A stretch of 62,450 nucleotides of DNA, the filler included. It is 5 parts of 5 records of this genome, joined end to end, with 100 filler letters (N's around TTAATTAATTAA, not from the genome) between each part and the next. Parts side by side here need not be neighbours in the genome. Positions count along the whole stretch, not along the records: positions 49,913 to 57,306 come from SRR31156797_13589; 4 more parts are not named here. One strand, given 5' to 3'. Position numbers and translations under genes: made by a program. Of this stretch, positions 30,958 to 62,450 are shown one piece after another. The notes below the pieces were generated by a model. It ran no database searches. It worked only from the letters and a program-made list of their open reading frames with translations, and was not told the DNA's origin. Position 1 is the stretch's first letter; each line of letters begins with the position of its first letter.

Positions 30958-30959
30958 TT

Positions 30960-42877: not shown

Positions 42878-43010
42878 ATAAGCTGCCACAAGATTATATC
42901 GTGAGGTTTATATATTAAGATAGATTATTACTAAACAATAGACTTAAATTTTACTGGATGGTAGAACGCGATACAATCGCGCACTAGCTTCAGGAAGGAA
43001 GAGTGAAGAG
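42876..43010. repeat. 135-bp REP-doublet-like repeat, copy 2
   Basis: Direct repeat of 41212-41346; terminal hairpin CGCGAT-ACA-ATCGCG. Confidence 0.9.
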
Positions 43011-43033
43011 GTGTAAACGATAATTTTAGAATG

Positions 43034-43585: not shown

Positions 43586-43671
43586 GTATTATGTGATTTT
43601 ATGATATTCTCTATCAGCAATTGTATGCGTCTAAAGCTAATCACAAGAATCTCGATTATTCTTTGTAGGAT

Positions 43672-44616: not shown

Positions 44617-44679
44617 AATTATAATATGATGTATGTTTTTACATTAAAAGATGATTAAGTGAAACTATGCCACACTAAA

Positions 44680-45753: not shown

Positions 45754-46176
45754 AAGTTTATATTATTAATAAATAAAAACAGCCATTAATAAATTAAATC
45801 ATTCAATCCTGATTTTAATTTTTTGCGTTATTCACAAACTCTTTTTACATCAGGAAGATTAGTTTGAATAGCTCTATCTAATTTAGTAAATGTAAATAAC
45901 TAACAATATATTCCTACAGTTTGCAATAACATAATATAAGCACAACTATAAGCATCACATACGCATACACCTGTTATACTGGCCATTAGTCAATTTTTAA
46001 GTACTTCTTATTTTGACTAACGTTGCTATTTATTGACAAAAAAACAATAATAGGTTTATTTTAATGTTGTTTAATTATCTATGGGATATGGTTTTAAATT
46101 CTTTAATAGTTGTTTCTCTAAAGCCTACATATTCACACCTGTCCCCAAACCGAATATAATATCTAAGGACTTTGGT

Positions 46177-46256
46177 TTTTAGGCAGGTTTATATAAGAAT
46201 GCGAGGTTGCAGGCAAAAAACTAGCTTTTATAGCTGGAGAATGGTAAGTATTTGAA
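46177..46256. repeat. 80-bp degenerate repeat, copy 2
   Basis: Colinear with 41672-41751. Confidence 0.6.
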
Positions 46257-46410
46257 CAAGAAACCTAGTCCAATTCTTAATTAATGATTTTAGTTGATTG
46301 AATATTGGGAATATGAAACCACGTTTTGTTGCCCCCAATTCCACATCCCAATGAAAAAAGAAATTTAGTGATAATCCTCTGCTAAACGAAAAGAGTTTAA
46401 ACCTCTTTTA

Positions 46411-46953
46411 TTATTCTTCTATGTCTTTCAGAACTCTTTTTACTTCTATTCCCAGAGTTCTATACTTTATATACCAAACAATGATTCCGGTTACAAAGCC
46501 AACTATGATAATACCCCAATAAAATAACTGGAAATTTAAAACAGATATATTATACGGAAGAGAAGTATTTATAATTCCAATATCCATCATTGCTAAGCCT
46601 ATTAAAATCCCTATTAAAAACTTACAAACTTCCAGTTTCCTTTTCTTAGAATACTTCCCTAACAATTCAATCGTCGGTAATGAATAGTCTACTGCTTTAT
46701 ATTTTTTGTATGTAGAATTAGAAACCCATATAATAATAAAAAATGCAATACTTATGCAACTGAGGCTAATCATCTGCGGAATATCTTTTTCGATAATATT
46801 TACGACAAGCAAAAAAGCAATTAATGGAAACAAGCTCCAATACACTGTTTTAACAAACTTGGCCGATTTTCTGTTAGTGTCATCAACTTTCTTAAGTTTA
46901 TTGACTAGTTTATCTAAGTCAACATGCATTGTTTGGTTTTCAAATTTACTCAT
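46411..46953 (-). CDS. Four-TM membrane protein, probable anti-sigma partner
   Basis: Overlaps the ECF sigma stop; four hydrophobic segments. Confidence 0.65.
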   Translation of the reverse strand: MSKFENQTMHVDLDKLVNKLKKVDDTNRKSAKFVKTVYWSLFPLIAFLLVVNIIEKDIPQMISLSCISIAFFIIIWVSNSTYKKYKAVDYSLPTIELLGKYSKKRKLEVCKFLIGILIGLAMMDIGIINTSLPYNISVLNFQLFYWGIIIVGFVTGIIVWYIKYRTLGIEVKRVLKDIEE

Positions 46954-47455
46954 GACTAGCTCCTTCCAGTTTAGTTTTTAAATGTGCTTTAATTCGATGA
47001 ATTTTAACTTTTACATTTGGCTCAGTAATTCCAATGACATTAGAGATTTCTTTCATGGAAAGATCTTCAAGCAGCAGCGTTATGATAGCTTTGTCGATAA
47101 TTGAGAGAACATTTAGTTCTTTTTCCAGTTTCTCAAATTGAATCTCCTGCTCCTGTTTCTCCGAAAAGGTATTTTCGTCGGATAACCTGTCTAATATTTT
47201 AGAATTTAACTCTCCACACAGTTCAAATTGTTTTAACACTTTACCCTTATATGTAAGTGAAGTATTAATGGCTATGCGATACACATATGTGCTCAAGCTT
47301 GAGTTTCCTTTAAAACTATCAAGCCCTTTCCAGATGTTAACTAAAATCTCTTGATATAAATCTTTTCTATTCTCTGGATTTGGCATATAATAACTGCAAA
47401 TCCTTTGAATTCGTTCATCATTTTTCTGTATTATCTGGTTAAATCTTTCCTTCAT
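46946..47455 (-). CDS. ECF sigma-70 factor
   Basis: DLYQEILVNIW, STYVYRIAINT, SMKEISNVIGITEPNVKVKIHR. Confidence 0.92.
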   Translation of the reverse strand: MKERFNQIIQKNDERIQRICSYYMPNPENRKDLYQEILVNIWKGLDSFKGNSSLSTYVYRIAINTSLTYKGKVLKQFELCGELNSKILDRLSDENTFSEKQEQEIQFEKLEKELNVLSIIDKAIITLLLEDLSMKEISNVIGITEPNVKVKIHRIKAHLKTKLEGASHE

Positions 47456-47487
47456 TGCCAAATTTCAAGTTATTGTTTACTTAATTA

Positions 47488-47512
47488 GTCATGAAATTTT
47501 TAAATAGTTACA
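47488..47512 (-). promoter_or_regulatory. Candidate ECF promoter TGTAAC-N15-TGAC
   Basis: Lies about 30 nt upstream of the ECF gene. Confidence 0.4.
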
Positions 47513-47683
47513 TTTTTTCTAAAAATAAAATTGATTGTAGTTGCGGAGGATATGAGGAGTATTAGAAAAGTTGAATTTAGGGATATGACTATTATAGGTA
47601 GACTTGCAACGTTCAAATTTGCATCTCTTTTTCAGAAATATCTTCCAGTCTATCTAATAGTAATATAGCCCGCCGGATTTTCA

Positions 47684-47790
47684 CAACTATCGTACGATTT
47701 GTATCGTTTGGTTTTAAATATTACAATACGTTTGCATTAAATGAAGCTCTACTTTTTTTTGCAGAATGCGATACCATCGCGCACTAGCAT
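47684..47790. repeat. Degenerate third copy of the REP-doublet-like repeat
   Basis: ACGATTTGTATCGTTTGGTTT left end and AGAATGCGATACCATCGCGCACTAGC right end match copies 1 and 2. Confidence 0.75.
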
Positions 47791-47942
47791 TGGGCCTTTT
47801 CAACCAAACAAAGGTATGATTGGGAATACGAACTACCTAAACCACATCTACATACCATTAAATACAACAAGCTGTTAGTGATTTGTTTTTATTTCATTTT
47901 CCTAATTTTCTGCCTGTAAGGTTTATTTTAGGAACTCACTTA

Positions 47943-48704
47943 TTAAAACATCAGTCCAATAGTCAGAGATACAATATCAACTTTTAAACTCCTTTCCCAT
48001 TCTCTTGTATACCCATCACTTAATCTTGATATTTCACCATCTGCATTATATTCTCCTAATGCAAAATAATTTATTGCAGCTGATATCTTTTCATTGAAGA
48101 TTAATCCACAACCAACTTTATAACCAGAGTTCGATGCAAAATTAAATTTCGTATTAAATCTTTCGTCTACAATATTCTTCATATTAAAACCATTTCCTTC
48201 AAAATAATATTCATCCCTACTTACAGTAGTTTTCATATCTGTTATCTTTAAGAAATTATAAACAAGACCCGTTTCAACTTTTAGTGAAACTCTATTATTT
48301 ATTTTTTTCAAAAAATATAAACCTGTTGATATAGGTATGTTTATATAATTTTTTAAACTAACATCATAATCGTAAGATGAATAATATATTCTGGCATCCC
48401 AGATGTCTTCTTTAGATTTCTTTGCAAGTTCATTCCTTAATCCAGATTTGGTTCTGTTATATAGAAAATCTATACCAACAAATAAACCCAAATTATTTAT
48501 TGGTAATGATTGGGTCAATTGTAAACCTATATTAAGTCCAACTGCGCCCCCGCCTGTATTTTCCTCGTTTATTTCTGATGATTCAAATTTAGATATAGGG
48601 ATTGATGATCCAACATGAACCTTCATACCTACTTGTGAAAAAACATCTGTCGAATAGACTGAAAAAACAATAAGAATTGTCAAGATAAAGTAACCTTTAC
48701 TCAT
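47943..48704 (-). CDS. Outer-membrane beta-barrel protein
   Basis: Signal peptide, amphipathic strands, YINIPI, C-terminal SLTIGLMF. Confidence 0.75.
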   Translation of the reverse strand: MSKGYFILTILIVFSVYSTDVFSQVGMKVHVGSSIPISKFESSEINEENTGGGAVGLNIGLQLTQSLPINNLGLFVGIDFLYNRTKSGLRNELAKKSKEDIWDARIYYSSYDYDVSLKNYINIPISTGLYFLKKINNRVSLKVETGLVYNFLKITDMKTTVSRDEYYFEGNGFNMKNIVDERFNTKFNFASNSGYKVGCGLIFNEKISAAINYFALGEYNADGEISRLSDGYTREWERSLKVDIVSLTIGLMF

Positions 48705-48910
48705 AATTTCAATTTAATTTTTATTGCTAAAAAAATCTGTCTATCATTATTTGGTTCGATTATTTTATGTGAAGGCTAACAGAACAATAAAGTTAATAGT
48801 AGTAACATTCTTATATATGCTTTTATTTATAACGCGAATATATAAATTTATCATAAATATGAACATAGCTTTATGATGACAACTCATATTCCCATCCCCA
48901 TTATGCTATT

Positions 48911-49070
48911 CAACTCCTCTGGAGTTGTATTATTTGCTTACTTATTACAAGCTATAGATATGCGACACCTCCGGTGTCAGGTTTTTATAATGTTAATCCT
49001 GATGCCGGAGGTATCGAATATTTTTAAAAACACTAGAACATGTTATAATACGACTCCGGAGGTGTCGCAT
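48911..49070. repeat. Cluster of four REP-like hairpins
   Basis: CAACTCC-TCT-GGAGTTG, GACACC-TCC-GGTGTC, GATGCC-GGA-GGTATC, GACTCC-GGA-GGTGTC; 48960-48979 and 49051-49070 are 18/20 inverted repeats. Confidence 0.8.
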
Positions 49071-49762
49071 TAAATTTGTGCATAAACACAATTCTTGCTT
49101 TCATTATAAATCTCAATCAGATCTTTCTGTTGCAATTGAGCTATAGGTTCCAAATAATTATATTCTCGAAATATAATTTTTAAGATGCCTATAATTGATT
49201 CTAATTCTGGAGACTGTTTATAGAAACTCAAAAATGTTTGTGGACAATGGTATTCATAACTTCTTTTATTCTCATCTGTAAGAAGTTCTATATGATAGGA
49301 GGTGCCATCAAATATACCCAAACTCACTTTATTTGCATTTTCTAAGCTATCCAGAACAGAATACCATGTAGGTAAAGTTAAAACACCTAATTGCTTAAGG
49401 GTATCAAATTTAGTATTCCACGAATCCGAAAGTTTTATTTTGGTATGTTCTGTTAGGTTCTTGTATTGCTTATCTTTTCTCCTATAAACTTTCCTTTTCT
49501 TATAAAAGAAGCTGTATTTATCTGCTTTCCAGATTGAATCTTTTGTATATTGAATCCTAAATAAAGTCTCACCTCTTGAATGCGACATAGAAATCCATAC
49601 TCTTAATTCAAATAAATTGTCTGAATCAAATTCAGGTATCTTGGTGTCCTTTAAATAATAATATGGAGTATAATCCGAATCTGGTGTTATTTCGAATTGC
49701 CCTTGTAAAGTATTAGCAAACACAAAACCCATAATTAGAATATTTATTAGCTTCTTTTTCAT
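49070..49762 (-). CDS. Secreted hypothetical protein
   Basis: Signal peptide; 230-aa ORF. Confidence 0.65.
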   Translation of the reverse strand: MKKKLINILIMGFVFANTLQGQFEITPDSDYTPYYYLKDTKIPEFDSDNLFELRVWISMSHSRGETLFRIQYTKDSIWKADKYSFFYKKRKVYRRKDKQYKNLTEHTKIKLSDSWNTKFDTLKQLGVLTLPTWYSVLDSLENANKVSLGIFDGTSYHIELLTDENKRSYEYHCPQTFLSFYKQSPELESIIGILKIIFREYNYLEPIAQLQQKDLIEIYNESKNCVYAQI

Positions 49763-49812
49763 ACTAGAAATATATTATTAAAAAACCCATTGGCGGAGTT
49801 AATAAATAGTAA

Positions 49813-49912: not shown

Positions 49913-51164
49913 CGATGGAACAATGGTCCTCTCCGCATATCCGACATCCTTTTTCATATCTTAAATCGCACCCGGTAAGTTTGGCGCAATAGGGCAACAA
50001 CAGGACCGACGGCCCTTTTCGGATGACCTCTTCAAATGAGCCGTTGACAACGGAGATCAGGTTGCAATGCTCCAAGGGGATGCCGAAGTTGGCGATTTCA
50101 GCTTTTTCCAGGCACTGATCGAGGGGTTTGACGAAATCTTCGAAGTGCAATCCCGGAATGTTGATGCGTCCTTGATCAAATTGGTCGTGGATCATTCCAT
50201 GCAGATGATCCCGGTCAAGCGGGGCGCCCCTGAGCCGGGCTTCCAGGTCGTAAAGCGCCCGGCCGGGAAAGGAGAGAAAATCACCGGTGATATAGACATC
50301 TTTGAGTCGTTTCTGGGGCAGGTTGATCACCAGACTAAAACGCACCATGCCGGCTGGGGCTTTGTAAGCCGCCTGTACGGCCTCGCGTTTTTGAAACCGG
50401 GGCTTGACGCTGTCGATCCAGTCCAGGGATCGAAAACGGGGCAATTTTTTTTCAAAACGTTTCTGTTCTTCAGCAGTCAATCCGCCTGCTTCCAATTGGA
50501 TCTGCAAACATTTTTCAAACCCGAATTGGATCGCCCGTTTGATATCCGCAAGGGCCGGCGCATCGCCCAATTCCCATTTCAGGCAGGTGACCCGGTCTTT
50601 GACCGAATCAATCTCTTTGGCCTTGAGTTTTTCCACCGGTATCTTCAGGGCCCTGAGCATGGTATCCACATCAAAGTCCACCAGCATGGTACCCTGAAAC
50701 ATGAAGGCACTGCCTGACTCGGTGCCGCCGGTTCCCGAAATCTTGCGGCCGTCGATCTCAATATCATTGCGCGGCCGAAAATCGGCTTCAAGATTCAATC
50801 GGGTAAGGGCCGCCAGCACCGGATTGCACAGGGTTTTAAAAAGCCGTGTATTGGGAACGGCCGCATTAAAAAACGCCTTGTCGCAAAACACTTCCCAACC
50901 CAGTTGGTTCTCATCGAAAAAAATGGCCCCGCCGCCGGTAATGCGCCGGTTGACGTCGATCCCGTTGGCCTGGCAGAAACCGGTGCGGATCTCCTCCTGC
51001 ATGGCCTGGTGAAAACCGATCAACACGGTTTTTGGCGAAAACTGCAGGAAACGGATGGTGTTGGGACTTTTCCCTTCGCCTTTGACCTCCAGCAATGTTT
51101 CGTCAAGGGCCATGTTTTCTGCTGCCGTCATGGGCGGCGTGTCTAATAATCTCCAGGTTTGCAT
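49913..51164 (-). CDS. lplA: Lipoate-protein ligase with accessory domain and DUF116-like Cys-rich tail, 3'-truncated
   Basis: ENMALDE, RRITGGGAI, NDIEIDGRKISG, GDF; LLLPYCAK...C...CRICG...C runs into the contig end. Confidence 0.88.
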
Positions 51165-51181
51165 GGTATCCTTTAGATCAG

Positions 51182-51577
51182 TTATGGACGGACACGGATA
51201 TAATCAATATCAACCGGCCCGGTCAGCATTTTCCCCACTTCACAATGGCGCGCCGAGTTGAAAAGGATTGCCCGTTCCCGTTGGGTCAAACCGTTGCCGA
51301 CATCGATATGGATCGTAAAGCGAGTTGATGGGGAAACACCATTTGCGGTTTGGCAACCCACCCCCACTTCGAGTTTGTCCATCGAAATTCTTTTGTGGTC
51401 TGCGACCGCAGACAAGGTCAGCACAATTCAGCTGCCAAGTGCTGTGACCATATACGCAATCGGACAATCGCCCCCCGCTCCGATACCTTCACGGGGGGAT
51501 ACCATAAAGTTCACCGGCCCTAATCGGACAGCGGCGTTGTTATCCTTCAGCCGAACGGTCGCGTAATACTCACCCAT
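51182..51577 (-). CDS. OsmC/Ohr-family selenoprotein, 131 aa, Sec at codon 50
   Basis: ATG 51577 reads ...CPIAYMVTALGS-TGA-IVLTL...ARHCEV; TGA (51430-51428) sits at the conserved OsmC Cys and is followed by a SECIS-like hairpin. Confidence 0.85.
51393..51427 (-). promoter_or_regulatory. Bacterial SECIS-like element
   Basis: TTGTG...GTCTGC-GGTC-GCAGAC-CACAA; G-initiated apical loop 20 nt after the UGA. Confidence 0.78.
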
Positions 51578-51603
51578 TTACTTTTTTCCTATAAAAAACC
51601 GGA

Positions 51604-52797
51604 TCATTTTTCAGTGGCAAGCGCTTTGTGTAGGAGTTGAACAACGTCCATGACGTCGACCGGGACCTTGTTTCTTTTGGCATAGGTGGTCATGGTGCGC
51701 ACGCACTGCTGGCAGGCGGTGACCACCGCCTGTGCACCGGTCTCCCGGACTTCTTTCATTTTGTTGCCGGCAATGTTTGCGGATAGTTTCGCATCGATCA
51801 TCTCCAGGTTGCCGCCTCCGCCGCAACAACTGCAATTCTCCCGATTGTTGGGCAATTCGACGAATCGGATCCCGGGAATGGATTGGATAAGTTGCCGCGG
51901 GGCATCATAGGTTTGCGCCCCCCTGCCAAGATCGCAAGGATCGTGGTAGGTCACCGTCAGGTCCAGTTCCCCGAGCGGCAGGCGGTCCTTTTTGAGCAGC
52001 TGTCCCAGAAATTCCGTGACATGGAAGATCTCAAATTCGCGGGGGTAATGCTCCTGCCACATCCGGTAACAGGATGGACAGGCAAAGACCACCTGTTTGG
52101 CTCCCCTGGCTTTGATGGCGTCGACGTTGCTCTCAATCAAACCATCGAGCTGGTCGCCGAGCCCCGCGCCGAGCAGCGGAAATCCGCAGCACCACTCATC
52201 TTCTCCCAAGAGTGTAAAATCGACCCGGGCGGCATCGAAGAGTTTTACCACGGCCATGGGAATCCGCTGGGCCAGCGGGAAAAAGGAGGAGACACAACCG
52301 GTGAAATAGACGACTTCGGCCTGCTCCTTTACATAGCCGTCTTCCGGTGCATCGGGCACATCTTCGACCCATTCGGCCCGTTCCTCGTTATCCTCGCCAA
52401 ATACGTTGTGGCTTTCATCCAAATTGTCCCGGATCATGTCGATTTTTCCGGGATAGGCATCCGATGCCACAAGGTCCTGGCGAAGTGAATGCCAGAGCTG
52501 GGTCAGGTCCAGCCCGGCCGGACAGGCCTGGCGGCAGTTCCCGCACAAGGTGCAGCGAAAAACCGTATCGCTGAAAGCGTGCAATTCTTCCGTTGTGGGT
52601 TCTTTGACAAAGCCAAGTTTACGCCAGAATCCCGTTCGTGCCTTGACCATCCGGCCAAGCTCCCCAAGGCGGTAAGCCGCCGACAGCTTTCCGTCACAAC
52701 CGCCGGCCACTGCCGGGCACACCTCGGCGCATGCCAGACAGTTCGTGCAGGCCTGTATCTGCATGAGCTGCTTGATGCTGTAGTTCTTATTTGACAT
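51604..52797 (-). CDS. HdrD/GlpC-like Fe-S oxidoreductase (two 4Fe-4S motifs, two CCG domains)
   Basis: CTNCLACAEVCP, CTLCGNCRQACP, YFTGC...EWCCG...ACPSC, YHDPC...SCCGGGG...ACQQC. Confidence 0.92.
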   Translation of the reverse strand: MSNKNYSIKQLMQIQACTNCLACAEVCPAVAGGCDGKLSAAYRLGELGRMVKARTGFWRKLGFVKEPTTEELHAFSDTVFRCTLCGNCRQACPAGLDLTQLWHSLRQDLVASDAYPGKIDMIRDNLDESHNVFGEDNEERAEWVEDVPDAPEDGYVKEQAEVVYFTGCVSSFFPLAQRIPMAVVKLFDAARVDFTLLGEDEWCCGFPLLGAGLGDQLDGLIESNVDAIKARGAKQVVFACPSCYRMWQEHYPREFEIFHVTEFLGQLLKKDRLPLGELDLTVTYHDPCDLGRGAQTYDAPRQLIQSIPGIRFVELPNNRENCSCCGGGGNLEMIDAKLSANIAGNKMKEVRETGAQAVVTACQQCVRTMTTYAKRNKVPVDVMDVVQLLHKALATEK

Positions 52798-52798
52798 T

Positions 52799-53221
52799 TT
52801 AATCCTGTTTGTATTTTTCGATATCTTCCAACACCCAGGTTTCGATATCGGAAGGGGCATGGATCAGGTTGTTCAGTTCATCCATGTCCGCCGGTTTAAT
52901 CTTGAACATCCACCCCTGGCCATAGCAGTCCTGGTTGATGAGCGACGGCTCGGCTTCAAGGGCTTCATTGCCCTCGATCAGTTCACCATTGACCGGCGCA
53001 TAGACCTTTCCCAGCCATTTACCCGATTCCACCTGGGCGAATTTTTTTCCTACCTTCAGTTTCTTGCCGGCAAAAGGAATCTGTACAAAAACAATATCGC
53101 CCGCCAGTTGCTGGGCAAAATCGTCCATACCCATAACCAGCATGTCGCCCTCTACTTTGACCCAGTAGTGGTTTTTCTCATAGTAAAGATCTTGCGGCAG
53201 ATTGTATCCTTGAATTTCCAT
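52799..53221 (-). CDS. GcvH/LbpA-like lipoyl-carrier protein
   Basis: HYWVK, GMDDFAQ, VESGKW (lipoyl-Lys), INQDCYGQGW. Confidence 0.92.
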   Translation of the reverse strand: MEIQGYNLPQDLYYEKNHYWVKVEGDMLVMGMDDFAQQLAGDIVFVQIPFAGKKLKVGKKFAQVESGKWLGKVYAPVNGELIEGNEALEAEPSLINQDCYGQGWMFKIKPADMDELNNLIHAPSDIETWVLEDIEKYKQD

Positions 53222-53238
53222 GCAATCCTTCCTCCTTT

Positions 53239-54498
53239 TCAGTGATTGATGTTGGATCGTGCCTCGGCCATCAGCACCACCGGTGCCGTCAGCATGTGTA
53301 TCATGCGCGTAAAGGGGATCATTGCCACAAATACGCCTGTTAAAATCGCATGGCCATACCACACATAGCCGTAGAGATTTGTTAACCCGGTCATGCCTTT
53401 CACCATCAGGCTGATGCCATAACCGATGATGGCATAATGCGCGCCGGCAGGCCCTCCGGTCATGGCGATCCGCAGACCTTCTAAAATAAATCCCACAAGG
53501 ACGATCAGGCCAAGCAGGACGGTCATGCCCCGGCCGGGCACCGGCAGACCACTCACCGCTCTCCGGTCTTCTTCAGGACGAAATAGGGCTGCGAACACCC
53601 CCGTAAGGATCATCAGGCCGGTCAGATCGAAAAACAGAGCCCGAATCGGATGGTTCTTATCCAACATGGCCCCGGTCAGATCCATGTCCGGCAGCAGCAA
53701 TGAGAGCCCAAGTGCGACCAACCCAAAGGCCAGCCGCATCAGGATCGGATAGTAAATCAGGGCGTGGATCGCCCATCTAGCCGGAGACAACCGATACAGT
53801 TTTTTAATGAAAAGCACATCGGCGACAAACGCAACCACCAAAAGTGAAAAACTACCCGATAGCCTGTGTCCGCTCCCTTTAGTGCGCCCGCCAGAGAACC
53901 AGACAGCGACAAGACCGCCCATTCCCAGGGCGAAGATCAGCAAAGAGATAAGGGTGGTCCGGTCCCCGATGGAAAAGGTGGCTGCGTGACAAGGCATGCA
54001 CAAGATGCTTTTCGCGGGCAGAACCATGGCCGATGCGCCCAAATGATTGTCTTTGAAATGGCAGCTGCGGCAAGAGGAATCTCCGGCCCGGGCAACCATT
54101 CGGTGGGGCGACGGGTTTCGCCCCGGCACCATCTCGCCGGTAAAGACCACCTGTCCGGTTCCTGGGTCGAGATCCGCAACGCCGTCTTTTTGATGACAGG
54201 CTTTGCAGGCAACCCGTGTGTGGGCGTCATGAGCCACCTTCTCATCGTGCGCCGCGTGGCACTGACGGCAGTCTACCAGGGGTAATGCTTCATGATCTTC
54301 CTCGACCGCCTGGTGGTGGCATGCCAGACATTGAATGTCCCCGTGCGCGGATTCCGCATGATCTTCCGCCATCTCTTCATGACATTCCATGCAGTCGTCA
54401 TTTGTATACCCATCCTCTATATCCGTTTGTGCTGCCGACGCAAAGGGGATCCCGATGCATAGGCTAAGAATCGTAATCTGGAGAAAAAATATCTTCAT
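53239..54498 (-). CDS. Hexaheme cytochrome c fused to a NarI/HdrE-like membrane domain
   Basis: Signal peptide; CMECH, CLACH, CRQCH, CKACH, CRSCH, CMPCH; TM region with RWAIH, GFILEGLR, WYGH, PFTRMIH; alternative start at 54543. Confidence 0.85.
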   Translation of the reverse strand: MKIFFLQITILSLCIGIPFASAAQTDIEDGYTNDDCMECHEEMAEDHAESAHGDIQCLACHHQAVEEDHEALPLVDCRQCHAAHDEKVAHDAHTRVACKACHQKDGVADLDPGTGQVVFTGEMVPGRNPSPHRMVARAGDSSCRSCHFKDNHLGASAMVLPAKSILCMPCHAATFSIGDRTTLISLLIFALGMGGLVAVWFSGGRTKGSGHRLSGSFSLLVVAFVADVLFIKKLYRLSPARWAIHALIYYPILMRLAFGLVALGLSLLLPDMDLTGAMLDKNHPIRALFFDLTGLMILTGVFAALFRPEEDRRAVSGLPVPGRGMTVLLGLIVLVGFILEGLRIAMTGGPAGAHYAIIGYGISLMVKGMTGLTNLYGYVWYGHAILTGVFVAMIPFTRMIHMLTAPVVLMAEARSNINH

Positions 54499-54529
54499 GT
54501 CCTGATACCCGAATGGGAATATCCATTGT

Positions 54530-54832
54530 TTAAAAGAGTTCATCACCGCTTTTCCCGCCCAATCCCGGATGCCCATCGAAGCGAACCACACCCACAGCCG
54601 CCTTGCCGGCCACGGCCGCCGTAATTTGTGCCGTTCCACGGTTGCCGAAGCCGCCGCACAACTCGATGGCCTCGATGCCCTCGTTGACCAGCTCAACCGC
54701 CACCGTTTCGGCCTCTGCGTAGCTGCCGGCGGCAACCGCGGTTAATTCGACTTGCGGTGTGACCACGGTTTGCCGGTCTTTTTGCGGATCAACCTCCGGG
54801 GCTAAAAAGATAAACGCTGCTTTTAGGGTCAT
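54530..54832 (-). CDS. DUF6506 family protein
   Basis: AAFIFLAP, IELCGGFG, VGVVRFD. Confidence 0.8.
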   Translation of the reverse strand: MTLKAAFIFLAPEVDPQKDRQTVVTPQVELTAVAAGSYAEAETVAVELVNEGIEAIELCGGFGNRGTAQITAAVAGKAAVGVVRFDGHPGLGGKSGDELF

Positions 54833-54866
54833 CTCTTCTCCTTTTTGTTACATTTGGCATTATGGA

Positions 54867-55889
54867 TCAGTTTAAAAGATTTTGGATCGTTATGGGATTT
54901 GTCTCATTTCCCGGTGCAAGGACCTGATTCTGCATGGCCAATGTCATGGTACGGTCCACATCCACGACCACCGGCCCTTCTGCCCCAAGGCGGATGATCG
55001 CCCGCTGTCCGCGTTTGATTTCAACTTCGCGTTCCCCATCCAGCGCGACGACGCAGGGGATGCAGACCAGTGCCACCTCATCGCCGATCCTCATCAAGCG
55101 TGCATTTTCCACGGAGACTGTCTCGAACACACCGGGCGCGACAGGCGCCGTAACCGCTTGCCCGCTTTGGCCCAGTTCAAGAACCATGCTGAACGGGTCC
55201 TCCGGCGCGAGGGTACGAAGCATGCCGCCGATGGAAGAGAAGCCGATCGTTGCCGGGTTGCAGCGGTTCAAGAAAACCTGCCTGACTTTTTCCATCTTCC
55301 ACACGGCGCGTGAGCCAATAAAGATGTCGTCGCAGACAACGGCATCGACGATGGCCACATCGGTCAACTGTCCGTCAACGACCACTTCAAGCCGCGTGGA
55401 GACATAGGTGCCATCTTTTCGGGGTACTTTTCCGGTGGCGATCAGGCCGGCGGCCAGCCCCGCAATGGTTCCTTCAATCATATAGGGAAACACATTGTTC
55501 GTGCCGGTTGACACAGGCAGGATGGGAACATGACACGTGCCTTTGGCAACTACGCGGTTGGTACCGTCACCCCCCAATGTGATAAGGCAACCGGCACCCA
55601 TTTCTTCCAGCATGCCGGCTGCCTGCGTGGAGTCTCTTTGATCCGCCTTGGCGTCAAAAACCAAAGGCGAGACGTCCATTTCGATCGTCAGCGCATCCAG
55701 TGCCCGCTGCACAATACCGTAGTAATCGGGCATGTAGAGAACCTGCCGCACACCTGCCGACTGCAGGCCGAGCAGGATGCGCCGCACGATTCTCACCTTC
55801 TCCTGATTGTTAAAAACGCTGCCGTAGGCAACCAATCTGCGAATGTCAGTGCCCGAGGCAGGATTGGCGATAATACCGACTGTAGTCAT
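54867..55889 (-). CDS. acoX: AcoX-like ATP-NAD kinase family protein
   Basis: VGIIANPASGTDIRRLVA, LGGDGTNR, STGTNNVFP, ALDGERE. Confidence 0.88.
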   Translation of the reverse strand: MTTVGIIANPASGTDIRRLVAYGSVFNNQEKVRIVRRILLGLQSAGVRQVLYMPDYYGIVQRALDALTIEMDVSPLVFDAKADQRDSTQAAGMLEEMGAGCLITLGGDGTNRVVAKGTCHVPILPVSTGTNNVFPYMIEGTIAGLAAGLIATGKVPRKDGTYVSTRLEVVVDGQLTDVAIVDAVVCDDIFIGSRAVWKMEKVRQVFLNRCNPATIGFSSIGGMLRTLAPEDPFSMVLELGQSGQAVTAPVAPGVFETVSVENARLMRIGDEVALVCIPCVVALDGEREVEIKRGQRAIIRLGAEGPVVVDVDRTMTLAMQNQVLAPGNETNPITIQNLLN

Positions 55890-55901
55890 GCGATGATTCC
55901 T

Positions 55902-56954
55902 TTAGGACTCAACCAGGATTTTGATGTTGGAGTCCCGGTTTTCAAGCAGTTCTTCAAATCCGTTTTCAACAATATCGTCCAGCTTGATTTTACCGGTGAT
56001 CAACGGTTCGGCCTTTATACGACCGTCCGCCAGAAGAGCGATGGCCGCGTCAAACTCTCCACAGTAGGCCAAAGACCCGATCACTTCTTTCTCCTGGAAA
56101 ACCAGGTCATTGTAATTTATCTCGCCCGGTTTTTCAAAGATGCCCACCACTACGATTCTCCCGCCGCGTTTCGCACACTGGATACCGGTATTGACCGTCT
56201 CGGCTTTTCCGATGCACTCGACGGCCACATCCACGCCCTGCCCGTCGGTTTGGTCCTGGATCTCGGCGGCCACATCCGTCTTTGTGGGGTCCAGAACGAT
56301 TGCCCCCAGTCCCTTTGCTTTCTCTTTCCTGTCCTTGGAAAGTTCAATGGCAAAGACCTTGCTCGCCCCGGCGGCCCGTGCCGCCTGGATGGTCACCAGC
56401 CCGATGGTGCCGGTTCCCACGACGGCAACGGTATCTCCCTGCAGTACTTTTCCCTGCCGGATCGCATGGATCCCCACCGCCAGCGGTTCGACCAAAGCAC
56501 CGGCCTCGTTGGAAAGCTCGGGGAGCAGTTTATAACAGGTGTAGGCGGGCACATTGACATATTCGGCAAAGGAGCCGTCGGTCATCAAACCGGTAAAAGC
56601 CAACTGTTCACAAACGCTGTAGCGGTTTACTTTGCACATATAGCACTCGCCGCAGTGCTGGGCAGCATCCGGCGCCACGCGGTCTCCCACGCTAACGTTG
56701 GTCACCCCCTCGCCGACGTCCACAACCTCACCGCTGAATTCGTGGCCCAGAATCACGGGCGCTTTCCTGCCGGTCAGCGGATGGGGCTCCTCGGTGGGAA
56801 TGAAAATCGGCCCGGCATCGTATTCATGCAGGTCGGAACCGCAGATACCGGTCTGGAAAACTTTGATTTTGACCTCACCTTTCCCGGGGGCGGGAGGTTC
56901 GGGAACATTTTCTACCCTGACATCCTTTTTACCGTACCATACGGCTGCTTTCAT
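55902..56954 (-). CDS. bdhA: Zn-dependent 2,3-butanediol dehydrogenase (MDR family)
   Basis: GICGSDLHEYDAGPIFIP...HPLTG, LGHEFSG, CGECYMC, GALVEPLAV, KILV. Confidence 0.88.
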   Translation of the reverse strand: MKAAVWYGKKDVRVENVPEPPAPGKGEVKIKVFQTGICGSDLHEYDAGPIFIPTEEPHPLTGRKAPVILGHEFSGEVVDVGEGVTNVSVGDRVAPDAAQHCGECYMCKVNRYSVCEQLAFTGLMTDGSFAEYVNVPAYTCYKLLPELSNEAGALVEPLAVGIHAIRQGKVLQGDTVAVVGTGTIGLVTIQAARAAGASKVFAIELSKDRKEKAKGLGAIVLDPTKTDVAAEIQDQTDGQGVDVAVECIGKAETVNTGIQCAKRGGRIVVVGIFEKPGEINYNDLVFQEKEVIGSLAYCGEFDAAIALLADGRIKAEPLITGKIKLDDIVENGFEELLENRDSNIKILVES

Positions 56955-56967
56955 CTTGTTTCTCCTT

Positions 56968-57297
56968 TTAGTGAGAAGTAAATCCACCATCCACGTTGAT
57001 TGCCTGAGCGATGACGTGTTTAGAGATTGCGAAATATACAGCCAAATCACCCATATCCTCAGGTGTTTGGGCTTCCCCCTGGGGGATCAGGATTTCCTGA
57101 TGGCGTTTCCAGGATTCTTCCATGGTTTCACCTGGATTTTTCCACTTCTCGGCGAGGCCATCGGGTTCGTACCACATCTGCGTTCCAATGATTCCCGGGC
57201 ATATCGCATTGACGGTGATTCCGGTCTGCTGCAGTTCTTTTGCCAGCGAGATAGTGAATCCCACCACAGCAAACTTGGAGGCACGGGAATGGGGGCG
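56968..57297 (-). CDS. SDR oxidoreductase (acetoin/diacetyl reductase-like), C-terminal part
   Basis: ASKFAVVGFTISLAKEL, VNAICPG, AQAINVDGG; cut by the contig edge. Confidence 0.8.
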   Translation of the reverse strand, partial: RPHSRASKFAVVGFTISLAKELQQTGITVNAICPGIIGTQMWYEPDGLAEKWKNPGETMEESWKRHQEILIPQGEAQTPEDMGDLAVYFAISKHVIAQAINVDGGFTSH

Positions 57298-57306
57298 TTA
57301 GGGTGT

Positions 57307-57406: not shown

Positions 57407-57587
57407 CAATATCAAAAGCGTCAATGAGTTCCGAAGTACCCTGCCCCACATCAGGGCCGGTTTGTCCGGCCTGGGACGTAGTGAAAAAAACCGGCGTAAA
57501 TTTTTGAAAATCCTTCTGTGCAGACATTCTTTCCATGAGCACGGAACCCACCATGCCCCGCCAGCCAACTATTCCGACTTTTTTCAT
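57407..57587 (-). CDS. asd: Aspartate-semialdehyde dehydrogenase, N-terminal fragment
   Basis: MKKVGIVGWRGMVGSVLMERM...FFTTSQAG. Confidence 0.95.
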
Positions 57588-57851
57588 ATCCTTTATCCTT
57601 TCAGCTACAAGTATGTAATTTAAAATTTAAGTCTTATTGCATAGCTGCTTTTTTAAAAAAAAGCCAGGGTCAGATATAAAAAACAGCAACTCTAAATATG
57701 AAGCGTTTCAGTTGAAAAAACTAGCACAGAGACACTAAGACACAAAAATTTTATTTGATTTTATGTGCCTTTAGGGCTTTGCGCGAGAATAAATTTAGAA
57801 TTGCTGTATAAAGAATCTGTGCAACCACCATGGGCCATACCTGCAATCTAA

Positions 57852-57881
57852 TGCCAATCTCAAAATTGCCAATCTCAAAAT
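57852..57881. repeat. Perfect 15-bp tandem duplication
   Basis: TGCCAATCTCAAAAT twice. Confidence 0.85.
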
Positions 57882-57959
57882 GATTTTCAACATATTTGTA
57901 AGCATGCAGACATAACATCTCTATTATGGAACACACTCCAACACGACACCACAGCAAAA

Positions 57960-57987
57960 GTACTACGAAATTGAAAATAGTTATTAC
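57960..57987. promoter_or_regulatory. Candidate NikR-type operator GTACTA-N16-TATTAC
   Basis: 6-16-6 geometry as in E. coli NikR sites (GTATGA-N16-TCATAC). Confidence 0.55.
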
Positions 57988-58154
57988 AAATATGTCTATG
58001 CATTAATTTCAAAATTGAAGTTTTGGCTCGAGTGCGCGCAAGGTCAAACCAAGGGTTCAATTTCTCACTACAAATTCATATTTACGTTATTTCAAATATT
58101 TATAAATGAATTTTTCTAAATAACTTCCTTTCCCAACGCCTTTATTGCTTGTTT

Positions 58155-58170
58155 CGGCCCGGCCTTTGCA
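58155..58170 (+). promoter_or_regulatory. Sigma54 -24/-12 promoter
   Basis: CGGCCCGGCCTTTGCA, exact GG-N10-GC with TTGCA, 60 nt before the ATG. Confidence 0.65.
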
Positions 58171-58188
58171 TACCCCTCTTGCAACCGA

Positions 58189-58216
58189 GTAATACTTTTT
58201 TATTAAAACGTAATAA
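58189..58216. promoter_or_regulatory. Candidate NikR-type operator GTAATA-N16-TAATAA
   Basis: Lies between the sigma54 promoter and the AGGAG RBS. Confidence 0.5.
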
Positions 58217-58230
58217 TCATAGGAGTAACC

Positions 58231-59208
58231 ATGAAATTTAAATCCAGAGTGCTTATTATCCTAATTTGTTTATTTGTTGTCCTTAGCAGCGCCCAGGCTG
58301 AACCCTTGAAAATTGCTTACAGTGACTGGCCCGGCTGGATTGCCTGGGATATTGGTGTCAGAAAAGGTTTTTTTGAAAAGCATGGGGTTGATGTTGAACT
58401 CAAATGGTTTGAATATATGGCGTCAATGGATGCATTCGCAGCCGGCAAAGTGGATGCAGTATGCGTGACAAACGGCGACGCCCTGATCCTGAACGCCACG
58501 GGTACCCGCAACATTATGATTCTGATCAATGATATCAGTAATGGGAATGATAAAATTGTTGCAGCCCCGGGCATTGAATCCGTCAAGGCGCTGAAAGGTC
58601 ACAAAATAGGGGTGGAGATCGGTTGTGTCAGCCATCTTCTGCTGATAAATGCCCTTAAAGACAACGGCATGACTGAAAAAGATGTCACCCTGGTGAATGT
58701 TCCCACCCACCAGACTGCCCAAGTTCTGGCATCCGGCGATGTTGATGCCATTGTTGCATGGCAGCCCAATTCAGGGCAGGCCCTTAAATCCGTACATGGA
58801 TCTTCACAGGTCTACACCAGTGCCAATGCCCCTGGCCTGATTTATGATACCCTGGCCGTATCGCTTAACTCCGTTTTGGAACGACGCGCAGACTGGCAGA
58901 AAGTTGTGGCGGCCTGGTATGACATTATCGCTTACATGAAAAACCCGGCCAACAAAACGCAAATGCTTGAAATTCTTTCCTCCCGTGTTGCTTTGACCCC
59001 TGCAGAGTATGAACCCTTTCTCAAAGGGACCAAAATTTTCACCCTGGCAGAGGCGGCAGGCGCCTTAAAACCCGGCGATGGTTTTTCAAGCCTCTACGGC
59101 TCCAGCGATATTTCAGACAAATTCATGATTGACAATAAAGTGTACGACAAGCCTGTTAACACCAAAAAGGTCATTGACCCCTCATTCACCAAAGCGTTGT
59201 TGAAATAA
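58231..59208 (+). CDS. ABC substrate-binding protein (SsuA/NMT1-like, urea carboxylase-associated type)
   Basis: Signal peptide; AYSDWPGW, SNGND, WQP. Confidence 0.88.
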   Translation: MKFKSRVLIILICLFVVLSSAQAEPLKIAYSDWPGWIAWDIGVRKGFFEKHGVDVELKWFEYMASMDAFAAGKVDAVCVTNGDALILNATGTRNIMILINDISNGNDKIVAAPGIESVKALKGHKIGVEIGCVSHLLLINALKDNGMTEKDVTLVNVPTHQTAQVLASGDVDAIVAWQPNSGQALKSVHGSSQVYTSANAPGLIYDTLAVSLNSVLERRADWQKVVAAWYDIIAYMKNPANKTQMLEILSSRVALTPAEYEPFLKGTKIFTLAEAAGALKPGDGFSSLYGSSDISDKFMIDNKVYDKPVNTKKVIDPSFTKALLK

Positions 59209-59221
59209 GGAAACAAAATCC

Positions 59222-60283
59222 ATGACCTGGCTTTCAATTCAAAAACCACTTGCGCCAAAGAAAAAAGCAGTGTTGATCTTGCTTTCCTTTGTCCTCCCCC
59301 TGCTGTTATGGTCGGCGGTCAGCTATCTGTCCTTTGTATGGCACCCCATGATGGAGATCCAGTCCGCCGGAGACAGTCTTTATTTTGAAGAAGGCCAGCG
59401 GGTCCGGCGCACGCTCTTTGCGGCAGAAAACACACGGATCAGCGAAAGTGGTGGGCAGAAAGCAACGGGAAGGCGTGTTAATCCGGTGTACCTTCCGCCG
59501 CCGCACAAGGTATTAACAGCTGTCTATACCTCCTTTAAAGCCAAACCCCGCAGACCGGGAGACCCTTGGCTCCATGAAAGTCTTGCCCATAGCATCCGTG
59601 TGGTGTTTTACGGATTCTTGCTCTCTTCCATCATCGGTGTGCCCTTAGGAATCATATGCGGCGTATTTGATTTTTTCTCAAAGCTGACAGAGCCGTTTAT
59701 GGAATTTTTCAGATATATGCCGGCACCGGTGTTTGGGGCCCTGGCAGTGGCGATTTTAGGCATTAACGATGCCCCCAAAATTGCCATTATTTTTATCGGC
59801 ACTTTTTTCCAACAGGTCCTGGTGATTGCCAACACCACGCGTCTGCTGCCGCCATCCTTGCTGGAAGCGGCACAGACACTAGGGGCCCGTGGCGGTACCC
59901 TGTTTAAAAAAGTGGTGCTTCCGGCTATCGCACCCCATGTGTTCCTGGATATGCGAATTCTTCTGGGCTGGGCATGGACCTACCTCATTGTCGCAGAAGT
60001 GGTCGGCACCAGTACCGGCATCACCTGGTTCATCAACCAGCAGGCCAAGTACCGTATTTATGAAAATGTGTATGCCGCAATCCTTCTCATCGGATTTATC
60101 GGGCTGTCCACCGATATGCTGCTGGCCTGGATCGGACGAAATGTATTTATCTGGAATGGCGGGCGACGCAACACGTTTTTTCAAATTCTCGTTGAGACCT
60201 TTACCGGCCCCAGGGACACCACATTTACTTTTCTAAACAAAAGAGACACAAGATATGAACGCGCTGACACTGCCCAGCTATAA
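59222..60283 (+). CDS. ABC permease (SsuC/TauC type)
   Basis: [34 protein letters not shown]. Confidence 0.92.
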
Positions 60284-61142
60284 GGACCAGAGCCCAAAGG
60301 TTGCAGACCGGTTTAAACGGTTAAAAAAACGGGATGTCATTCTTGAAGCTGAAAATATTACCAAAGTATTCAATTCGGAAATCGGGGACATCACCGCCCT
60401 TAAATCCTTATCCTTCAAGGCATACCGGCGGGAATTTCTCTCGGTGATCGGCGCCTCCGGATGCGGAAAATCCACGTTGATCCGTATTTTATCCGGTCTT
60501 GAGACAGTCACATCCGGGCAAGTGCTGCTGGACGGCAAAAAAGTGGAAAAACCCGGGCCGGAAAGGGGTATGGTTTTCCAGGGTTACACATTGTTTCCCT
60601 GGCTGACGGTCAAAAAGAATGTGATGTTCGGCTTGGAGGTTGCCGGAAAAAGTCAGGCAGAATCGGAAGCCATGCAGTGGATAGACATGGTGGGACTTGA
60701 TCGGTTTGCAGATCACTACCCCCGTCAGCTGTCCGGCGGCATGCAGCAGCGGGTAGCCATTGCCCGGGCCCTGGCCAACCAGCCCAGGGTGTTGTTGATG
60801 GATGAACCCTTTGGTGCCCTGGATGCCCAGACAAGGGCAAAAATGCAGTCCTATCTGCTTCAGATCTGGCAGAATGTGGATATCACCATCATTTTCATCA
60901 CCCATGACTTGGATGAAGCGGTCTACCTGTCGGACAGGATTCTGGTGCTGGACAACCATCCAGGGCGCGTCAAGGAGATGATTGAAGTGCCGGTGGAACA
61001 GCCGCGCTCGGTCAAACAGCACCTGAACCCAGAATTTCTGGCCACCAAGGCACATATTGAAAACCTGATTCATCCACACAGAGATGAAGAGGACCGGCTT
61101 CCCATCATCCGCCTGACCCAGGTCAATGATGATATTTTGTAG
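60255..61142 (+). CDS. ABC ATP-binding protein
   Basis: [27 protein letters not shown]. Confidence 0.95.
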
Positions 61143-61170
61143 TCGGTATTCAAAAAAGGAAAAAGATACC

Positions 61171-62368: not shown

Positions 62369-62450
62369 AACTTGATTCGTTTTTATATGAAACTCGATAA
62401 TCCGGTTTTTAGGGAATTTTTTCAAATTCAAGGCGGAAACAATTTTTAAC

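Follow-up and report, generated by a model that had tools for sequence, protein, structure and literature searches.

What does a lipoyl carrier protein do when its gene lies between those of a cytochrome c/membrane protein and an HdrD-like iron-sulfur protein? This arrangement is found on a contig of 7,394 bp (positions 49913-57306, GC 0.547) within the 62,450-nt stretch of DNA analysed here (the window). The contig is cut at both ends, with N spacers on either side, and carries nine genes, all on the minus strand and separated by intergenic gaps of 1-34 nt. A preliminary description of this DNA had reported nine packed genes on one strand, their domains and the truncation of the contig at both ends. 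This was borne out by Pfam and NCBIfam profile scans of the contig proteins, with a cut-off for each family, and by the contig limits. To our knowledge, HdrD-like CCG proteins are abundant in anaerobes and their thiol substrates are mostly unknown outside methanogens and DsrK. A dedicated lipoyl carrier, encoded with its own maturation genes between the subunits of such a complex, is a concrete candidate for such a substrate and is open to experiment.

Comparison with related loci indicates that the cytochrome c/NarI-like protein, the GcvH paralog and the HdrD-like protein are a strongly conserved unit (hereafter the module) in Desulfobacterota. The best reading of this trio is that of a lipoyl-protein:membrane oxidoreductase, a function and a direction of electron flow that we infer.

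The window consists of five contigs (1-27631, 27732-40744, 40845-49812, 49913-57306 and 57407-62450) joined by runs of N and a TTAATTAATTAA linker. Their GC contents are, in order, 0.354, 0.523, 0.31, 0.547 and 0.473, and a range from 0.31 to 0.55 suggests a mixed or loosely binned assembly. Features on different contigs are therefore not to be taken as linked. The sequences on either side of the contig under study (GC 0.31 and 0.473) lie on separate contigs and are therefore not its genomic neighbours.

The lipoyl carrier, the HdrD-like protein and the cytochrome

One genome per species was scanned with two family motifs, including [DE]EWCCGFP, as seeds. The scan yielded 604 pattern-matching stretches, 596 of which encode a relative of the HdrD-like protein. 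The locus counts given below refer to the best 80 of these 596 (59-87% identical), which were taken with up to 10 kb on each side and searched with the window proteins using tblastn. Relatives of the HdrD-like protein number in the thousands; identity to it is 63-89% among the best 120, and those that are named come from metagenome-assembled genomes of Desulfobacterales or Thermodesulfobacteriota. Of the 74 loci with at least 500 bp of upstream sequence, 69 have a gcvH gene on the strand of hdrD and no more than 1 kb upstream of it, three have gcvH elsewhere in the locus and two lack it. The trio is also carried by Delta proteobacterium NaphS2 (L059), which is in culture. The cytochrome/membrane gene was found upstream in 50 of the 58 loci with at least 2.5 kb, and in 37 of the 39 with at least 6.5 kb, of upstream DNA. 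Further, an LplA-type gene was located within 3 kb downstream in 45 of 70 loci. The gene order recurs in dozens of related loci and thus far beyond chance, and the suggestion of the preliminary description that the lipoyl carrier, the HdrD-like protein and the cytochrome are a unit with its own lipoate ligase holds up.

The carrier gene (52799-53221, minus strand) encodes a protein that matches Pfam GCV_H with 136.8 bits and passes both NCBIfam cut-offs for the H protein (NF002270, 143.4 vs 117 bits; TIGR00527, 121.7 vs 115.85 bits). All 13 solved structures that match it are named glycine cleavage H protein. In the ortholog alignment, the lipoyl lysine K68 lies in an invariant ESGKW and an invariant C99 lies in DCYG, positions at which canonical H proteins carry ESVKA and (D/E/S)PY, respectively. 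In a maximum-likelihood tree, midpoint-rooted for drawing only, the GcvHs of the module form a clade of their own (support 100/99) apart from the canonical ones (95/93). Among the five genomes that were reached via the loci, four (G001, G002, G004 and G005) hold a better-scoring gcvH elsewhere. That of G001 lies in a canonical gcvT-H-PA-PB operon confirmed with Pfam, those of G002 and G004 lie in the same gene layout, and that of G005 lies beside genes sized like gcvPA and gcvPB. In G003 (2.5 Mb), the module copy is the only gcvH match. By its motifs and its position in the tree, the module GcvH is a dedicated paralog, distinct from the glycine cleavage H protein.

Some relatives of the carrier occur in other settings. 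A module-clade GcvH with ESGKW and DCYG lies away from any HdrD in one locus (L091, G002:C1:2711168-2719509, at 3935-4360), where its neighbours are sulfatase-like genes and a gene for a 430-aa protein without a Pfam match. A 248-aa GcvH-ferredoxin "fusion" on a single contig was set aside as probably a merged gene call of adjacent GcvH and HdrD. Further, P0243, a protein of 1391 aa, is a single chain in which three H-like domains are combined with a GlcD-like FAD oxidase and with an HdrD-like part belonging to the module HdrD family. At the column of the lipoyl lysine, its three H-like domains carry E, G or R. P0243 was considered as a Rosetta-stone link to lipoyl chemistry and rejected, since none of the three H-like domains has the lipoyl lysine.

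The HdrD-like protein (51604-52797, minus strand) matches CCG in two stretches (106.3 bits) and Fer4 families. Its two CCG motifs, C168-X34-C203C204-X35-C240xxC243 and C288-X35-C324C325-X36-C362xxC365, are invariant, as are the cysteines of the two ferredoxin-type 4Fe-4S motifs (C17/20/23/27 and C82/85/88/92). An HdrD is recognised by two CxxCxxCxxxCP motifs and two complete CX(31-39)CCX(35-36)CXXC motifs, and the window protein has both pairs. Both full CCG motifs were present in 69 of 69 HdrD orthologs, a count that is partly built in by retrieval with [DE]EWCCGFP. The protein scored far below the NCBIfam cut-offs of TmcB (73 vs 735 bits), HmcF (71.4 vs 750) and DsrK (86.4 vs 400), and likewise of GlpC. 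The closest solved structure is the soluble part of Mycobacterium smegmatis EtfD (9ojn_A, E = 4.5e-39). In the residue alignment, EWCCGF of the window protein stands opposite ETCTG of EtfD; the window protein thus retains the Hdr-type CC pair. According to the available text of PMC13083937, each noncubane cluster of the true heterodisulfide reductases has an extra, displaceable cysteine and is accessible to the substrate, and the first CCG domain of EtfD holds a linear 3Fe-4S cluster on four cysteines, its clusters forming a shielded wire. The earlier statement that CCG domains perform thiol/disulfide chemistry is accordingly kept in part: the full Hdr-type set of cysteines is present in HdrD, but in EtfD the CCG clusters are an electron wire.

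The product of the third gene (53239-54498, minus strand) has 5-6 transmembrane helices, a signal peptide and six CxxCH motifs. We describe it as a hexahaem cytochrome c, located in the periplasm, that is fused to a putative haem-b membrane domain of the EtfD/HdrE/NarI-like type. The Pfam families Cytochrom_c3_2 and Nitrate_red_gam both scored just below their cut-offs (19.6 vs 22.9 bits for the NarI match), and a sequence search returned no solved relative. Three histidines (H245, H383 and H401) are invariant in 46 aligned cytochrome/membrane sequences. Among 45 orthologs of at least 400 residues, six haem motifs were counted in nine, which are from acetoin-type loci, and eleven in 28. In the AlphaFold model the haem domain is poor, as expected without cofactors, and the membrane part is fair (pLDDT 70-89). 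The best match of the membrane part was the membrane domain of EtfD (9ojn_A, residues 2-258; Z = 12.3, root mean square deviation 3.8, 233 aligned), followed by CybB (Z = 8.6) and NarI (1q16_C, Z = 7.7); values of Z below about 13 are weak for helical bundles, since they may stem from no more than a similar packing of helices. On the basis of this model, the membrane part would be better named EtfD/HdrE/NarI-like than NarI. Of the NarI fusion reported earlier, the six CxxCH motifs and the membrane helices are thus retained, and the NarI label gives way to the better fit of EtfD. The membrane gene and hdrD match the two halves of EtfD, a result that is coherent, and the two genes together resemble a split EtfD or HdrDE.

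The setting of the module differs among the related loci. Neighbour families were obtained by clustering crude calls of open reading frames, and Pfam and NCBIfam were scanned with representatives of the recurring clusters only. AcoX was found in only 11 of the 80 loci, and a GlcD-like FAD oxidase in 34. A second HdrD-like paralog, about 30% identical, is a common neighbour, as are genes for tripartite ATP-independent periplasmic (TRAP) transporters, and LarA occurs in 11 loci. In lactate-type loci the order is FAD oxidase, HdrD-like paralog, GcvH and HdrD; the paralog encoded upstream of GcvH has two full CCG motifs in 41 of 44 cases. The specific link to acetoin that was proposed earlier is not supported by this survey: aco genes occur in just 11 of 80 loci, and in most loci the module is accompanied by the GlcD-like oxidase and the second HdrD-like protein, frequently together with LarA or TRAP genes. 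Neither TusA, DsrE, rhodanese or HdrA/B/C genes nor genes for electron transfer flavoproteins (ETF) were found among the Pfam-scanned representatives of recurring clusters from the 80 loci.

Genes for lipoate attachment and synthesis accompany the module. The lipoate-protein ligase gene of the contig (49913-51164, minus strand; LplA-B_cat 163.7 bits) encodes LplA catalytic and LplB-like C-terminal domains and the start of a Cys-rich DUF116, and its 3' end is cut. The full-length ortholog (L005:11724-13316, 530 aa, 81% identical) adds the C-terminal Cys-rich DUF116, and a contig of the probable source run extends 1437 nt beyond the LplA end. Many lactate-type loci have in place of LplA-DUF116 a shorter ligase, 28-31% identical and without DUF116. 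Downstream, many loci carry LipS1-like and LipS2-like radical-SAM genes and a LipT-like FAD gene of the geranylgeranyl-reductase family. These genes are known from the relatives, and their positions would fall past the end of the window contig. The best NCBIfam scores of the LipS1-like (213.7 vs 230 bits) and LipS2-like (231.2 vs 270) proteins were below the cut-offs, and that of the LipT-like protein for the geranylgeranyl reductase family was above it (210.7 vs 158.8).

The acetoin operon in relatives

The preliminary description had stressed that no dihydrolipoyl dehydrogenase (E3) and no acoABC are present on the contig. This is correct: neither E3 nor acoA, acoB or acoC was found on the contig or elsewhere in the 62,450-nt window, and Pfam detected no gcvT or gcvP on the contig. 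The lack of E3 and acoABC probably reflects the truncation of the contig and not the biology. Among the 11 acetoin-type loci, four (L003, L005, L014 and L063) reach upstream and four (L054, L020, L079 and L008) were extended by fetching upstream DNA; the other three stop at a contig end and are not counted among these eight. All eight operons open with genes for E2, E3, a LipB-LipA fusion and the alpha and beta chains of E1, after which AcoX is encoded. E3 scored above the dihydrolipoyl dehydrogenase cut-off (444 vs 408.8 bits); in one of the eight (L079/L083) its match is split into two pieces. The LipB-LipA fusion exceeds both the lipA and the lipB cut-offs. The E2 (AcoC) has its own lipoyl domain (Biotin_lipoyl) and two E3-binding domains in the three examined, and the idea that an AcoC without a lipoyl domain borrows GcvH was rejected for this reason.

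In the relatives, the 5' half of the operon reads acoC, acoL, lipB-lipA, acoA, acoB, acoX, (SDR, DUF6506) and the cytochrome/membrane protein. The 3' half reads GcvH, HdrD, (Sec-OsmC), LplA-DUF116, LipT-like, LipS1-like, LipS2-like, (methyltransferase) and a sigma-54 activator. By this gene order, the contig would be the middle of a sigma-54-controlled catabolic operon for acetoin/2,3-butanediol from a Desulfobacterales-type bacterium. The contig itself is probably one piece of an acetoin dehydrogenase operon that is classical in other respects, with E3 present in the relatives. A sigma-54 consensus scan of the window gave four matches vs 3.7 expected, none of them useful, and scans for sigma-70 promoters and terminators were at chance level. 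Four acetoin-type loci encode a conserved protein of 355-381 aa between acoB and acoX (L020:1070-2137, L079:3052-4170 and relatives), for which neither Pfam nor NCBIfam gave a match.

Four genes precede the module on the contig. The C-terminal part of a short-chain dehydrogenase/reductase (SDR) of the acetoin reductase or meso- or S,S-butanediol dehydrogenase type is encoded at 56968-57297 (minus strand; Pfam adh_short_C2 53.9 bits), its 5' end being cut by the contig end. The top NCBIfam match of this 109-aa fragment is TIGR02415, acetoin reductase (66.4 bits). A stop codon in its frame falls in the last approximately 40 nt of the contig, which belong to a different unitig in the probable source run, and this origin accounts for the stop. 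A Zn-dependent (R,R)-2,3-butanediol dehydrogenase-like enzyme of the medium-chain dehydrogenase/reductase type follows (55902-56954, minus strand; ADH_N and ADH_zinc_N). Compared over its full length, it is closest among solved structures to 6ie0, an (R,R)-butanediol dehydrogenase (E = 1.3e-95; runner-up 3.5e-57). The next gene (54867-55889, minus strand; Pfam NAD_kinase 37.4 bits) encodes an AcoX-like protein with the NAD kinase/diacylglycerol kinase fold, for which a sequence search returned no solved-structure relative. Its orthologs (61-75% identity) come after acoB in the related loci. PMC3543383 presents AcoX as a typical member of aco clusters whose function is unknown. DUF6506 (54530-54832, minus strand; 100 aa; Pfam DUF6506 118.5 bits) is extremely conserved, the top 120 of its 1172 relatives being 78-96% identical. 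Its predicted model is confident (pLDDT 89.6); no solved relative was found by sequence, and the fold search gave nothing at E <= 0.001, the best match being the N-domain of DgkB at E = 3.8e-3. DUF6506 thus adjoins AcoX, a protein of NAD-kinase/diacylglycerol-kinase type, and itself has a weak likeness to the N-domain of the diacylglycerol kinase DgkB. DUF6506 and AcoX may function together.

Between hdrD and the ligase gene lies a gene for an OsmC-family protein (51182-51577, minus strand) that was previously described as a selenoprotein. It scores above the OsmC cut-off of Pfam (46.2 vs 27.5 bits) and below that of OsmC_like_Se (25.4 vs 95 bits). An in-frame TGA (51428-51430), corresponding to selenocysteine (Sec) at codon 50, is present within ALGS*IVLT in 12 of 12 orthologs of 33-75% identity, with conserved protein on either side. 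The second redox position, Cys112, is kept in all 12. A candidate selenocysteine insertion sequence (SECIS) hairpin, GUCUGC-GGUC-GCAGAC (51398-51413, minus strand), starts 17 nt past the UGA. The hairpin core CUGCGGU(C/U)GC(A/G)G, 17 nt after the UGA, was present in 13 of 13 sequences and drawn by the minimum-energy fold in nine of them. An Rfam scan of the contig at E <= 1 gave no match and hence no named SECIS family. SelB was above its cut-off in all five ortholog-bearing genomes vs two of 14 control genomes. The conserved codon, the hairpin and SelB agree with the earlier description, and we take the gene to encode a genuine selenoprotein. It follows HdrD directly in only 10 of 70 assessable loci. 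Among sequencing runs, the probable source run and three marine-sediment runs hold relatives, and no RNA run is listed for this DNA. Contigs from marine-sediment runs join HdrD directly to LplA (joint 51167->51604), with a spacer of 15 or 31 nt instead of OsmC. Since OsmC is precisely missing in such close relatives, the gene appears to come and go as a cassette. In another locus (L092, G005:C3:483729-492085, approximately 3900-8000), a different GcvH paralog lies near OsmC and a dihydrolipoyl dehydrogenase-like gene, followed by a radical-SAM gene. By analogy, this GcvH-OsmC-E3 set would correspond, in a bacterium, to the peroxide system of H protein, L protein and OsmC.

Electron flow through the module

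The reading that we prefer is built on the arrangement of the genes, on the presence of dedicated maturation genes and on the Hdr-type cysteines that HdrD has kept. In this reading, the GcvH paralog carries a lipoyl group that would cycle between dithiol and disulfide and would be the substrate of HdrD, as CoM-S-S-CoB is of HdrDE and DsrC of DsrMK. HdrD would oxidise dihydrolipoyl-GcvH at its CCG clusters, and the electrons would pass via the 4Fe-4S clusters to haem b, from where they would reach menaquinone, the c haems with periplasmic acceptors, or both. The most likely reductant of the carrier in the acetoin operon would be AcoL (E3), which would draw on NADH or dihydrolipoyl-AcoC and so act as the feeder. 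E3 enzymes serve both the lipoyl domains of E2 and H proteins, and AcoL is therefore the obvious reductant. The module thus probably works beside E3 and not in its place. In lactate-type loci, the GlcD-like flavoenzyme and the second HdrD-like protein would take the role of the reductant. The order FAD oxidase, HdrD-like paralog, GcvH, HdrD suggests that one CCG protein would reduce the carrier and the other oxidise it. Sec-OsmC would most likely be an optional side branch, in which dihydrolipoyl-GcvH reduces hydroperoxides; the GcvH-OsmC-E3 set of G005 and the H-protein/L-protein/OsmC system speak for such a link. Textbook potentials are approximately -290 mV for lipoamide, -320 mV for NAD, -74 mV for menaquinone and -190 mV for lactate. 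With these values the step from dihydrolipoyl-GcvH to menaquinone is downhill, which fits a catabolic operon. For the reading as a whole, i.e. an operon fragment with a lipoyl-GcvH/HdrD/cytochrome module in which HdrD oxidises dihydrolipoyl-GcvH toward the membrane and E3 is the feeder, we consider the chances to be evenly balanced.

Several points weigh against it. E3 and NAD already close the cycle of acetoin dehydrogenase, so that the known pathway can do without the module. In lactate-type loci, the reduction of lipoate by lactate is uphill, and a mechanism shared by both types of locus is thus not thermodynamically clean, which is a weakness. The locus counts describe a narrow family, namely the best 80 of 596 stretches retrieved via two sequence motifs. 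In the membrane domain just three histidines are invariant, which makes any count of b haems provisional. P0243, the only fused form found, ties by its sequence the H fold but not lipoate to the HdrD-like family. A GcvH beside ligase and lipoyl synthase genes could be an intermediate of a lipoyl relay. Further, GlpC and GlcF are CCG proteins that are not known to act on thiols. CCG proteins need not do so, as EtfD also illustrates in the available text of PMC13083937.

These points lead to other explanations of the same genes. The preliminary description had proposed that the module replaces E3, reoxidising the dihydrolipoyl groups of acetoin dehydrogenase straight to quinone or cytochrome c, and had named an E3 consistently encoded in the full operon as a finding that would overturn the idea. 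A lipoyl carrier, HdrD and cytochrome in an aco-type operon, on a 7.4-kb contig and in a window without E3, could be read in this manner. However, the contig ends before the position that acoC and acoL have in the relatives. Where upstream DNA is available, acoL follows acoC in eight of eight acetoin-type loci, above the cut-off as given above and with the one split match, and AcoC with its lipoyl domain has two E3-binding domains in three of three cases. We therefore regard replacement of E3 as extremely unlikely. The module could also run in reverse, importing electrons from periplasmic cytochromes or menaquinol and reducing lipoyl-GcvH for Sec-OsmC and/or for NAD+ via E3. A multihaem cytochrome c domain that faces the periplasm, as in Tmc and Hmc, which are thought to be electron importers, is consistent with this direction. 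So are the disulfide-reducing direction of HdrDE, the position of Sec-OsmC right behind HdrD here and in 10 of 70 loci, and the GcvH-OsmC-E3 triad elsewhere in G005. However, 60 of 70 loci lack OsmC, as do close relatives of this very contig, so that peroxide defence cannot be the core role. Transfer from menaquinol to lipoate is strongly uphill, and the operon context is one of substrate oxidation. Reverse flow thus appears unlikely to us.

HdrD and the cytochrome might be an electron wire only, the output of a flavoprotein as in EtfD, GlpC and GlcF, with GcvH encoded there for another reason. The use of the CCG clusters as a wire in EtfD, the closest solved relative, as its available account has it, and the GlcD-like FAD oxidase in 34 of 80 loci point in this direction. 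Against this, the acetoin-type loci have no such flavoprotein beside HdrD, and the FAD oxidase already has an HdrD-like partner of its own. In 69 of 74 loci the gcvH gene is inserted behind the membrane gene and ahead of hdrD, and the CC pair that is gone in EtfD is retained in HdrD, so that a wire without thiol chemistry is a distinctly doubtful explanation. In a lipoyl relay like the LipM-GcvH-LipL route of Bacillus, the GcvH paralog would serve only in assembly: LplA, LipS1 and LipS2 would build lipoate on it, and AcoC would then receive the product. A route via GcvH is established in Firmicutes, and ligase and lipoyl synthase-like genes do come after GcvH. However, the lipB-lipA fusion in the same operons can supply AcoC directly, no LipL-type amidotransferase was seen, and lactate-type loci have no lipoyl enzyme to serve. 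In addition, a ligase gene is missing from the adjoining 3 kb in 25 of 70 loci, yet the GcvH-HdrD pair is present in 69 of 74. The relay is very unlikely to be the reason for this arrangement. Finally, the lipoyl protein could handle sulfane sulfur, as has been proposed for LbpA in sHdr, and not electrons from carbon substrates. The dedicated ligase and the LipS1/LipS2/LipT-like maturation set also occur in sHdr-LbpA clusters, but neither TusA, DsrE, rhodanese nor HdrA/B/C was among the Pfam-scanned cluster representatives, and the neighbours are dehydrogenases and transporters for carbon substrates. A sulfur-carrying role is highly improbable on these grounds.

The preferred reading, oxidation of dihydrolipoyl-GcvH by HdrD toward the membrane, leads to a broader proposal. 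The lipoylated GcvH paralog would be the physiological substrate of a widespread bacterial HdrDE/Tmc-like complex, and lipoate a new respiratory electron carrier. We advance this tentatively, with its probability somewhat below even. If true, sulfate reducers would use protein-bound lipoate to link their cytoplasmic dehydrogenases with menaquinone and with the cytochromes of the periplasm, by way of E3 in acetoin operons and of a flavoenzyme plus a second HdrD-like protein in lactate-type operons. This would provide an electron route to the membrane from NADH- or lipoyl-linked dehydrogenases. Lipoate would have a second cellular role beyond 2-oxoacid and glycine cleavage, and a substrate long missing for bacterial HdrD-like proteins would be named for at least one of their families. 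Relatives of the hdrD gene occur in at least 596 stretches of species-representative genomes.

Comparison with known systems

The preliminary description knew of no characterised example, and we likewise found no description of the GcvH/HdrD/cytochrome module in the searched literature, which excludes subscription journals, so that absence in print is unproven. The nearby lipoyl-protein literature, as seen in titles and the starts of abstracts, consists of papers on sHdr or sulfur oxidation and one on SoxT, none of them on the module.

HdrDE of Methanosarcina resembles the module in that its HdrD is cytoplasmic and has a pair of 4Fe-4S motifs and a pair of complete CCG motifs; its haem-b membrane subunit has a putative equivalent in the membrane part of the module. 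It differs in its substrate, CoM-S-S-CoB, as opposed to the protein-bound lipoyl disulfide proposed for the module. Further, the host of the module is bacterial, with menaquinone in place of the methanophenazine used with HdrDE, and the membrane subunit of the module adds a periplasmic hexahaem cytochrome c. The ETF:menaquinone oxidoreductase of M. smegmatis (EtfD/EMO, PDB 9OJN) is the best solved relative of both HdrD and the membrane domain. In the available text of PMC13083937, its cofactor chain leads from the CCG clusters via 4Fe-4S and haem b to menaquinone, and EtfD overlays well with a model of HdrDE. Unlike EtfD, the module consists of two polypeptides, keeps the CC pair in the first CCG motif and has an added cytochrome c domain.

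Tmc, Hmc and DsrMKJOP combine a multihaem cytochrome c in the periplasm, a NarI-like cytochrome b and an HdrD-like CCG protein in the cytoplasm, and the proposed substrate is the dithiol of DsrC. They occur in the same phylum as the hosts of the module. In contrast to these complexes, the module has an HdrD far below the family cut-offs, its cytochromes c and b are fused, and the carrier is lipoyl-GcvH and not DsrC. The sHdr-LbpA system, reportedly studied by Cao (2018) and Tanabe (2023), has, like the module, a GcvH-like lipoate-binding protein together with CCG proteins of Hdr-like type. Its private maturation set of ligase, LipS1, LipS2 and the FAD protein LipT has a putative equivalent in the ligase of the module and in the LipS1-, LipS2- and LipT-like genes of the relatives. 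Unlike sHdr-LbpA, the module has no HdrA or HdrB/C-type subunits and no sulfur transferases among the scanned cluster representatives of its loci. It is predicted to be bound to the membrane via the cytochrome, its carrier scores as GcvH and its LipS1 and LipS2 matches are below the cut-offs.

Peroxide reduction by H protein, L protein and OsmC takes place in the Trichomonas hydrogenosome. This system and the lipoyl-dependent Ohr/OsmC peroxidases resemble the module, in which an OsmC-family protein is encoded near a GcvH-type carrier. The difference is that the OsmC of the module is a selenoprotein and optional (10 of 70 loci, and missing from close relatives). The H-protein/L-protein/OsmC system is also cited in the accessible part of a 2026 preprint on lipoylation. 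The nearest printed idea is the LarG proposal for Pelobacter carbinolicus. In the available text of PMC3543383 (Aklujkar et al., 2012), the GcvH-like LarG and dihydrolipoamide dehydrogenase are proposed to shuttle electron pairs between the Act complex and NAD. This hypothesis likewise places a GcvH-like lipoyl carrier and E3 between a membrane cytochrome complex and NAD; it differs in that the membrane partner is the Act complex, without an HdrD-like protein, and it was put forward as an idea from genome annotation. Judged from its sequences and gene order, the module is a real and conserved system that is undescribed in the searched literature and is akin to the membrane complexes of the Hdr, Tmc and EtfD type.

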